43,149 nucleotides of DNA from an uncultured Gammaproteobacteria bacterium. Lineage in GTDB: Bacteria; Patescibacteriota; Microgenomatia; UBA12405. Position numbers and translations under genes: made by a program. This document shows, piece after piece, positions 22,571 through 43,149 of this stretch. Location of the stretch: positions 1 through 43,149 of the forward strand of contig CAZVMP010000003.1 of NCBI GenBank assembly GCA_964628885.1. Reading direction: 5' to 3'. Within the stretch, counting starts at the first letter, position 1. Each line of letters starts with the position of its first letter. The notes under the pieces are model-generated. The model made no database searches. It had not been told where the DNA came from and saw nothing but the letters and a program-made list of their open reading frames with translations.

Positions 22571-23257
22571 TTATACTAGATTATTTAGTATTTTGGTAGC
22601 TTTAATAGAGGCAGACTCTTCTGCTTTTTGTTTAGAATTTCCTCGACCTTTAGCAATAAGCTTATTGTCTAAAAATACCCCAACTTCAAATATTTTTTGA
22701 TGATCTGGGCCGGATTCAGATAAGGTTTTGTATTTTGGAGTGATCCCCTGTCGAGATTGGGCAATTTCTTGAAAAATACTTTTTGGGTCTTTATAAATTT
22801 CTTTGGAAGATAATTTGGTGACACTGGCTTCAAGAAATTTATCTAAAAATTTAAAAGCAGGAGAAATTCCTCCATCAAGGTAGATAGAACCAATTAGGGC
22901 TTCAAAAGTGTCAGCCAAGATGGATTGATTATGTCGACCATTATGGTTTTCTTCCCCGCGTGAAAGAAAGATAAATTCGCCAAGATTAAATTCTTCTGAT
23001 ATTTTAGCTAAATTCTGAGTACAAACTATTAGGGCTCTGAGGTTGGTTAGCTTACCTTCGTCAAATTGGTTAAATCGATTAAAAATTCGATCTGATGCCC
23101 AAAGTTCAAGAACAGCATCGCCGAGAAATTCATATCTTTCGTTGGATTCGTTAAACCGAGGTTGTTCATTGAGAGAAGATCTATGGACAAGAGCTTGTTG
23201 GAGTTTAAGCTGATCTTTAAATTTATAGCCGATTAATTGTTGGAGTTTATCAATCAT
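22571..23257 (-). CDS. rnc: Ribonuclease III
   Basis: NERYEFLGDAVL signature, ADTFEALIG, C-terminal dsRBD. Confidence 0.97.
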   Translation of the reverse strand: MIDKLQQLIGYKFKDQLKLQQALVHRSSLNEQPRFNESNERYEFLGDAVLELWASDRIFNRFNQFDEGKLTNLRALIVCTQNLAKISEEFNLGEFIFLSRGEENHNGRHNQSILADTFEALIGSIYLDGGISPAFKFLDKFLEASVTKLSSKEIYKDPKSIFQEIAQSRQGITPKYKTLSESGPDHQKIFEVGVFLDNKLIAKGRGNSKQKAEESASIKATKILNNLV

Positions 23258-42749: not shown

Positions 42750-42823
42750 GTCCTCATAGCTCAGTTGGATAGAGCGCCTCCCTTCTAAGGAGGAGGTCGC
42801 AGGTTCGATCCCTGCTGAGGATA
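42750..42823 (+). tRNA. tRNA-Arg(UCU)
   Basis: GTCCTCA...CCTCC-CTTCTAA-GGAGG...GCAGGTTCGATCCCTGC-TGAGGATA. Confidence 0.95.
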
Positions 42824-42835
42824 CTCGGGAACTAA

Positions 42836-42907
42836 GCGCCTATAGCTCAATGGATAGAGTACTAGTCTTCGGAACTAGTGATGGGGGTTCAATTCCCTCT
42901 GGGCGCA
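42836..42907 (+). tRNA. tRNA-Arg(UCG)
   Basis: GCGCCTA...CTAGT-CTTCGGA-ACTAG...GGGGGTTCAATTCCCTC-TGGGCGCA. Confidence 0.95.
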
Positions 42908-42920
42908 CTTTTTAAAATTG

Positions 42921-42993
42921 GGGTTTGTAGCTCAGTTGGTAGAGCGGTCGCCTCTTAAGCGATTGGTCGCGGGTTCGAGTCCCGCCGAACCCA
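42921..42993 (+). tRNA. tRNA-Lys(CUU)
   Basis: GGGTTTG...GTCGC-CTCTTAA-GCGAT...GCGGGTTCGAGTCCCGC-CGAACCCA. Confidence 0.95.
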
Positions 42994-43024
42994 CAAAATT
43001 TAGAAAAGTTCGTTAAAATAGATT

Positions 43025-43094
43025 ATTAACCCTTAAGATCTGGCGCCTCGGTATTACCTGAAGTAGTGCTGGGCACCAGATTTTAGGGATTAAT
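43025..43094 (+). ncRNA. Candidate structured RNA (about 30-bp interrupted hairpin)
   Basis: Pairing traced by hand from A43025-T43094 up to C43057-G43063; 4 G-U pairs favour the plus strand; TAAAAT at 43014-19 just upstream. Confidence 0.45.
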
Positions 43095-43099
43095 TTTTG

Positions 43100-43149
43100 G
43101 CCGCAGTGTTGAAATTGGTATACAAGCACGGCTTAGGACCGTGTGGGGT
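43100..43149 (+). tRNA. tRNA-Leu(UAG), truncated by the window end
   Basis: GCCGCAG-TG-TTGAAATTGGTATACAA-G-CACGG-CTTAGGA-CCGTG then the start of the variable arm. Confidence 0.9.

Follow-up and report, generated by a model that had tools for sequence, protein, structure and literature searches.

What is the long hairpin that lies between two tRNA genes of an ultra-small bacterium, is it maintained as an RNA, and what might it do there? The locus comes at the very end of the window that we analysed, a stretch of 43,149 nucleotides from a member of Ca. Shapirobacteria, ultra-small bacteria of the Microgenomates/CPR group. RNA processing and non-coding RNAs have barely been characterised in the CPR/Patescibacteria, which have minimal sets of RNases. 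This hairpin combines clear covariation, a fixed place at one tRNA gene and two simple candidate partners, RNase III and RNase P.

A hairpin on the tRNA strand

The window closes with a same-strand tRNA array. Its first two genes, tRNA-Arg(UCU) and tRNA-Arg(UCG) (42750..42908, plus strand), are followed by tRNA-Lys(CUU) (42921..42994, plus strand), all of them detected by both ARAGORN and Rfam. The tRNA genes of this array, such as tRNA-Lys, do not encode CCA. The stem of the hairpin begins 30 nt after tRNA-Lys, its upstream neighbour. The hairpin itself (43025..43094, plus strand) is 70 nt long and forms about 30 bp between a 5′ arm at 43025-43057 and a 3′ arm at 43063-43094, with the loop CUGAA at 43058-43062. 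Its base is A/U-rich, and the stem is followed by TTTTT, a G and then GCCGCAG, the start of tRNA-Leu(UAG). The 5′ part of that gene (43100..43149, plus strand) starts 5 nt past the last paired base and is truncated by the window end, where the scaffold has a gap; as the window ends inside the gene, ARAGORN makes no tRNA-Leu call there. A full tRNA-Leu(UAG) is called in the continuation of the contig (L001), beyond the 100-N scaffold gap.

This gap deserves a short comment. The same stretch of about 55 nt, namely TTTTG and the first 50 nt of tRNA-Leu, is found on both of its flanks (window 43100-43149, contig C3:43150-43337; L001 1587-1824), thus the gap resembles an unmerged overlap and not missing sequence. 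The assembly has 26 contigs, totals 711 kb and is 94% complete.

The initial annotation of this locus, which was made from the letters of the sequence, had described the coordinates, the arms, the CTGAA loop, the TAAAAT upstream, the U-run and the tRNA flanks just as we find them. Its estimate of about 30 bp also holds, but its four G-U pairs and single C-A mismatch become five G·U pairs and two C/A mismatches by our own count.

Three kinds of evidence identify the hairpin, i.e. its folding energy and z-score, its covariance model (CM) score and its covariation. With RNAfold, the plus strand of 43014-43098 reaches -38.8 kcal/mol, compared with -16.1 +/- 2.8 kcal/mol in 200 dinucleotide shuffles (z = -8.2), and not one of these 200 shuffles folds as well. 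The minus strand of the region is weaker (-27.7 kcal/mol, z = -5.0). The covariance model matches 43023-43096 with 94.2 bits on the plus strand and 49.6 bits on the minus strand.

The homologues described below allow the base pairs to be examined individually. In the 20 sequences from genomes, RNAalifold finds 28 consensus pairs, 13 of which carry compensatory changes. When metagenomic copies are included (35 distinct sequences), 96.4% of the cells in the alignment form standard pairs, a figure that drops to 28-46% if the 3′ partners are slid by 1-3 columns. Thirteen of the 29 pairs have changed on both sides, in 119 cells, and the observed covariation score is reached by none of 500 shuffles. 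The pairs also have a direction. G·U pairs make up about 18% of cells (our own tally from the pair table of the 35 sequences) and become C·A mismatches on the opposite strand; across homologues the model gives 67-95 bits to the tRNA strand and 30-55 bits to the opposite one. From the share of G·U pairs and this gap in score we conclude that the functional form is an RNA, read in the direction of the tRNAs.

Sequence conservation leads to a similar view. The genus is old, with PheT identities among congeners of only 56-71%, yet the hairpin has a mean column identity of 77%, which implies selection on the hairpin. It is therefore a real structure of the plus-strand RNA that is under selection. 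The initial annotation had argued for selection on the plus-strand RNA from the G-U pairs of a single sequence; syntenic homologues, compensatory changes and strand scores now bear this out.

Conservation is distributed unevenly along the helix, which measures 29-31 bp and has single-nucleotide irregularities only. The lower 12 bp covary freely. The apical 9-11 bp form a continuous helix, there are no internal loops, and the terminal loop varies in both sequence and length (e.g. CUGAA, AUGAA, UUUAU and GCAA). The helix also has two invariant blocks about one helical turn apart, UGG/CCA and CGGU/RCUG, the latter with a fixed G·U pair, although part of this invariance may reflect sampling, as the metagenome sequences were chosen with a pattern that requires the blocks and recruitment by CM favours them too. 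Their 5′ strands lie at 43040..43054 on the plus strand of the window (columns 19-21/56-58 and 28-30/49-51, alignments A4 and A5).

The sequences on either side of the stem suggest two further readings, the first of them raised by the initial annotation. In this one, the hairpin reduces read-through into tRNA-Leu as an intrinsic terminator or attenuator, and the TTTTT that follows the stem in this genome is what one would look for. We consider this very improbable. The U-tract is not conserved and is absent from most homologues, many of which end in CCC, CUCC or AGAU right before the tRNA. Furthermore, the stem base is A/U-rich, the gap of 0-5 nt usually leaves tRNA-Leu no room for a promoter of its own, and a terminator scan does not flag the site.

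The other reading concerns the -10-like box TAAAAT (43014..43019, plus strand), 5 nt before the stem, whose status as a promoter is uncertain. A promoter scan finds no full sigma-70-type site before the hairpin, and TAAAAT has no -35 partner. A similar box lies 3-5 nt upstream of the hairpin in some relatives, where the hairpin does not abut tRNA-Lys, and it falls in two different reading frames of unrelated upstream ORFs. This recurrence could be explained by common descent, and on the whole we disfavour the promoter.

Homologues, known families and genomic position

BLASTN gave the first homologues, four syntenic ones in congeners. Covariance models were then built from 5 and later from 20 sequences, and a CM search detects a single hairpin locus per genome in 20 of the 38 genomes, each at species level, that represent the genus. 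With stricter filters, the same kind of search finds no hairpin in 94 other genomes of the order. Nor does a filter-free search of the tRNA-Leu loci of the hairpin-less congeners and of five genomes outside the genus, which represent four other genera of the family and one other family of the order. Metagenome contigs, scanned with a pattern, yield 43 matches, of which 26 are further copies and 17 are unrelated sequences without the hairpin. In phage collections we find no copy, and all 26 viral contigs that match the pattern are unrelated sequences without the hairpin. An earlier and looser pattern scan of genome contigs had returned two real loci among the 80 matches listed, the rest being chance matches. 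The range of the hairpin is thus narrow: about half of one genus.

Within the genus, a quick PheT tree (a single gene, midpoint-rooted, with a weak backbone) has the hairpin-bearing genomes spanning the genus and nine hairpin-less ones clustering, such that one to three changes are needed. This is most simply read as a single gain close to the base of the genus, with one subclade losing the hairpin later.

No known family accounts for the element. At the gathering scores of Rfam 15 only tRNAs pass, and with E up to 10 the sole overlap is a minus-strand match to mir-1263, whose 23.5 bits against a cut-off of 95 are noise. Neither ARAGORN nor RF00005 finds a cloverleaf in the hairpin, so a tRNA identity was rejected, in agreement with the initial annotation. 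The hairpin is an RNA motif that is new to the databases, absent from Rfam and well supported.

The comparison that requires most care is with the signal recognition particle (SRP). The bacterial small SRP RNA (4.5S, RF00169) is also a single hairpin of similar length, and RF00169 is unmatched in this genome, even at E up to 10, and in 60 relatives, which leaves room for the idea that our 70-nt hairpin is a divergent SRP RNA. The initial annotation had set this idea aside, and for practical purposes we regard it as refuted. The hairpin does not match the RF00169 model and has no helix-8 features, i.e. no GNAR loop and neither symmetric nor asymmetric internal loops, and its restriction to half of one genus is too narrow for an SRP RNA. 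The protein partners are missing as well. Searches of this genome with PF02978, PF00448 and TIGR00959, together with motif scans of all six-frame ORFs, find neither Ffh nor FtsY, while a SecY control is detected readily (E = 7e-98). In about 330 Patescibacteria genomes there are no real matches to Ffh or FtsY (0 of 61 in the order, 0 of 151 in the class and 0 of 121 in the phylum), the single marginal match being a Mur ligase. That SRP is absent from such bacteria is already published: ffh and ffs both went undetected in all Parcubacteria genomes (Nelson and Stegen 2015, PMC4508563), and many other CPR bacteria are without two SRP subunits (Moreira et al., PMC8080830).

In nearly all copies, from genomes and metagenomes alike, the hairpin lies 0-5 nt from tRNA-Leu(UAG) on the same strand. 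Its distance to tRNA-Lys(CUU) ranges between 0 and about 550 nt. In copies that are flanked directly by tRNAs on both sides, the hairpin takes up the entire spacer of 72-76 nt (73 nt in G034 and G008, where its distance to tRNA-Lys is 0). A gap of 63-78 nt before tRNA-Leu is seen in four copies. Three of these still abut a decayed duplicate of the 5′ half of tRNA-Leu, which carries a GC-rich mini-palindrome. In the fourth, in G020, a GC-rich stem and a TGGTATAAT box are inserted between the hairpin and tRNA-Leu, and here tRNA-Leu may have its own promoter.

In hairpin-less congeners, tRNA-Lys (tRNA-Arg in one genome) is only 3-27 nt from tRNA-Leu. Because these congeners join their tRNAs so closely, tRNA maturation as such does not require the hairpin, which is dispensable, yet long retained elsewhere in the genus. 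One hairpin-less genome, G015 (L071), is an exception, with an 85-nt spacer between tRNA-Lys and tRNA-Leu that holds two unrelated small hairpins. It seems that this junction gains structured inserts again and again. Elsewhere in the family, in the genera examined (L257, L258 and L262), tRNA-Leu(UAG) is divergent from the tRNA-Arg-Arg-Lys cluster and 46-140 nt apart from it. The Lys-to-Leu arrangement and the hairpin are therefore both features of this genus, in which an inversion or relocation put tRNA-Leu downstream of tRNA-Lys.

Candidate roles in the tRNA transcript

Two general features of RNase III bear on the question of function. Regular helices of such a length, about 30 bp, are classic substrates of this enzyme, and a dsRBD reads successive minor grooves. 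The helix of the hairpin is regular double-stranded RNA that exceeds the 20 bp (about two turns) at which RNase III substrates start, and the cognate enzyme is at hand. The window carries rnc (22571..23257, minus strand; PF14622, PF00636 and PF00035), which encodes a full RNase III with a catalytic domain and a dsRBD. The initial annotation had pointed to this gene, and it gives the only dsrm match in the genome; no second dsRBD protein was found there. We treat RNase III as a candidate trans-acting partner, a link that we infer from these features.

An RNase P RNA is encoded on the minus strand of G000 contig C5 (8313-8574); it is of type A, has 262 nt and scores 95.8 bits, just below the gathering score of 100, and it is a reduced form. 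There is no clear RNase Z. TIGR02651 reaches 19.9 bits in a 587-aa metallo-beta-lactamase ORF (G000 contig C2:41812-42057), which is possibly an RNase J.

The reading that we prefer is that the hairpin is a lineage-specific, cis-acting RNA that works as a processing or insulating spacer of the tRNA transcript and is tied to the 5′ side of tRNA-Leu(UAG). We give it a probability of roughly 0.45, i.e. somewhat below even odds. The hairpin would share a transcript of the tRNA strand with tRNA-Leu and usually also with tRNA-Arg, tRNA-Arg and tRNA-Lys. It would then fold independently into about 30 bp of helix, flanked on both sides by linkers of about 4 nt. A cut by RNase P at position +1 of tRNA-Leu would separate the two, and RNase III would recognise, and probably cut, the helix. 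Such a module would uncouple tRNA-Leu from whatever RNA lies upstream, be it a tRNA or an inserted mRNA, and might leave a protective 3′ stem on that upstream RNA.

Parts of this scheme have precedents or can be stated more precisely. Polycistronic tRNAs of E. coli are separated by RNase P (PMC7049720, PMC4176162). Given that the RNase P RNA is present, a cut at tRNA-Leu +1 would leave the spacer with a 3′ end about 4-9 nt past the stem. In a model of a 282-nt precursor, the hairpin folds independently of the tRNAs that flank it. It is the sole recognisable dsRBD, in RNase III, the regular helix of about 30 bp and the spacing of the boxes by one turn that lead us to favour a processing module; invariant boxes at this distance would match a dsRBD. 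The analysis shows the structure with its strand, position and copy number, and the selection on it; that the hairpin is co-transcribed, released by RNase P and recognised by RNase III is what we infer.

For the preferred reading we count the fold and its strand, the single copy per genome, the fixed position at tRNA-Leu, the covariation, the selection on the hairpin, the independent folding of the modules, and the presence of RNase P and RNase III. On the other side, the hairpin is dispensable in congeners whose tRNAs are 3-27 nt apart, G020 keeps it although tRNA-Leu there may have its own promoter, and we see no clear RNase Z that could make the 5′ end of the hairpin. The invariant boxes fit a specific protein partner, which may be RNase III or another protein, and we count this against a processing module too.

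A simpler version of the same idea needs neither nuclease nor partner. The spacer might be self-paired only because 70 unpaired nucleotides would mispair with the tRNAs, making the hairpin a passive structural insulator. The independent folding of the modules fits this well, as do the free compensatory evolution of the lower stem and the fact that the element is dispensable. Even so, we think it quite improbable, as it leaves the invariant boxes, the conserved G·U pairs and the constant helix length unexplained. Deleting the spacer would also have solved the mispairing equally well, and this is what happened in one clade.

The main rival to a processing module is a small, stable RNA that stands alone, is about as large as a tRNA and acts in trans by binding a protein. 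Its ends may be set by the tRNA-processing enzymes or by a promoter just upstream. Several features agree with such an RNA: the two boxes, including the G·U pair, are fixed, in contrast to the freely covarying lower stem and the variable loop; the hairpin exactly fills the 72-76 nt spacer where it is sandwiched between tRNAs; a TAAAAT-like box recurs 3-5 nt upstream and in two frames of unrelated ORFs; and G020 retains the hairpin although tRNA-Leu appears to have a promoter of its own. Regulatory RNAs derived from tRNA spacers do exist, e.g. 3′ETS-leuZ (PMC8166272). The difficulties are that a nearly fully double-stranded RNA with a variable loop offers no seed for base pairing, that no partner protein other than RNase III is evident, and that one subclade lost the hairpin without a visible replacement. 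In addition, the conservation of TAAAAT is perhaps due to common descent, and no -35 box was found. We therefore regard a stand-alone RNA as possible though doubtful. A more specific form, in which tRNA-maturation enzymes excise a stable dsRNA that acts in trans through the invariant boxes, e.g. as a titrant or guide of RNase III or of a dsRNA-binding protein that has escaped recognition, strikes us as unlikely.

Comparison with known systems helps to place the hairpin. RNase III processing hairpins occur between cistrons, e.g. the R1.1-type sites of phage T7 and the stem after tRNA metY in the metY-nusA-infB operon of E. coli, and the RNA upstream of such a hairpin can keep part of it as a stem that protects it. 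By analogy, these are the elements that our hairpin would most resemble in the way it works: a long and nearly perfect helix of at least 20 bp lies between two units of one transcript, and RNase III is encoded in the genome. Unlike them, our hairpin belongs to the 5′ side of one tRNA and to one genus, shares no sequence similarity with them, and its cleavage is only predicted.

A second parallel comes from the tRNA cluster of phage T4, which contains the stable non-tRNA RNAs species 1 and species 2; these are released by tRNA-processing enzymes and their function is unknown. Like them, the hairpin is a structured non-tRNA RNA embedded in a tRNA array. The T4 RNAs are phage-encoded, whereas no phage copy of the hairpin was found.

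The hairpin can also be set beside 3′ETS-leuZ of E. coli, the external trailer of a tRNA operon that acts as a base-pairing sRNA sponge (Lalaouna 2015, as cited in PMC8166272). Like it, our hairpin would be a piece of a polycistronic pre-tRNA that is excised by tRNA-processing enzymes and is under selection of its own. They differ in that the hairpin is an internal spacer or 5′ leader and is almost fully double-stranded, without a seed. A base-pairing RNA of this type was rejected for our locus: the only unpaired parts are a variable loop of 4-6 nt and variable 4-nt linkers, in which no seed is conserved. The same review states that no stable ITS had been reported as of 2021. A stable RNA from an internal spacer of a bacterial tRNA operon would be a first; if that is what the hairpin is, it would also be specific to the CPR and add a new type to the RNAs derived from spacers. 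As nothing more than a processing module, it would illustrate how such tiny genomes fit tRNAs and inserted genes onto a single transcript without spacing. In either case, its narrow reach and its dispensability limit its general importance.

Insertions and duplications around the hairpin

Between tRNA-Lys(CUU) and the hairpin lies a hot spot for insertions (L215:5455-5997, L042:1576-1827, L211:618-1016 and homologous loci). Where the two are far apart, the space is filled by one of three ORFs: a NUDIX hydrolase gene, an ORF for a predicted membrane protein of 133 aa, or a small GIY-YIG ORF. The NUDIX gene, of 180 aa, starts at the last base of the tRNA and ends at or inside the 5′ arm of the hairpin. 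Such a near-absence of spacing around the inserted ORFs suggests that their mRNAs are released by the tRNA-processing enzymes.

A hot spot of this kind raises the question of whether the hairpin is itself a relic of selfish or recombining DNA, such as a MITE, a REP sequence or an att site, and has no function as RNA. Besides the NUDIX, GIY-YIG and membrane ORFs, the upstream spacer collects partial tRNA duplicates and GC-rich mini-palindromes, which would be in keeping with such an origin. The idea is, however, largely refuted. The hairpin is single-copy in every genome that has it, including the one copy in this 711-kb genome, and a REP or MITE identity was rejected on this ground; the phage collections hold no copies; and the 13 compensatory pairs, together with the strand asymmetry of the G·U pairs, are a signature of RNA and not of DNA. 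The initial annotation had named two outcomes that would speak against an RNA, a lack of homologues or covariation together with the lack of a transcript, or dispersed copies. We find homologues, covariation and a single copy, thus neither outcome applies.

Partial duplicates of tRNA-Lys and of the 5′ half of tRNA-Leu are found at several loci (L004/L005 in G020 and G007, and L241; also L043, L045 and L237). Short palindromes (CCGCCAACTGGCGG; CCTGCCTGCCGGCAGGCAGG), rich in GC although the genomes are otherwise AT-rich, interrupt these duplicates. These palindromes may represent a small mobile palindromic element that targets tRNA genes.
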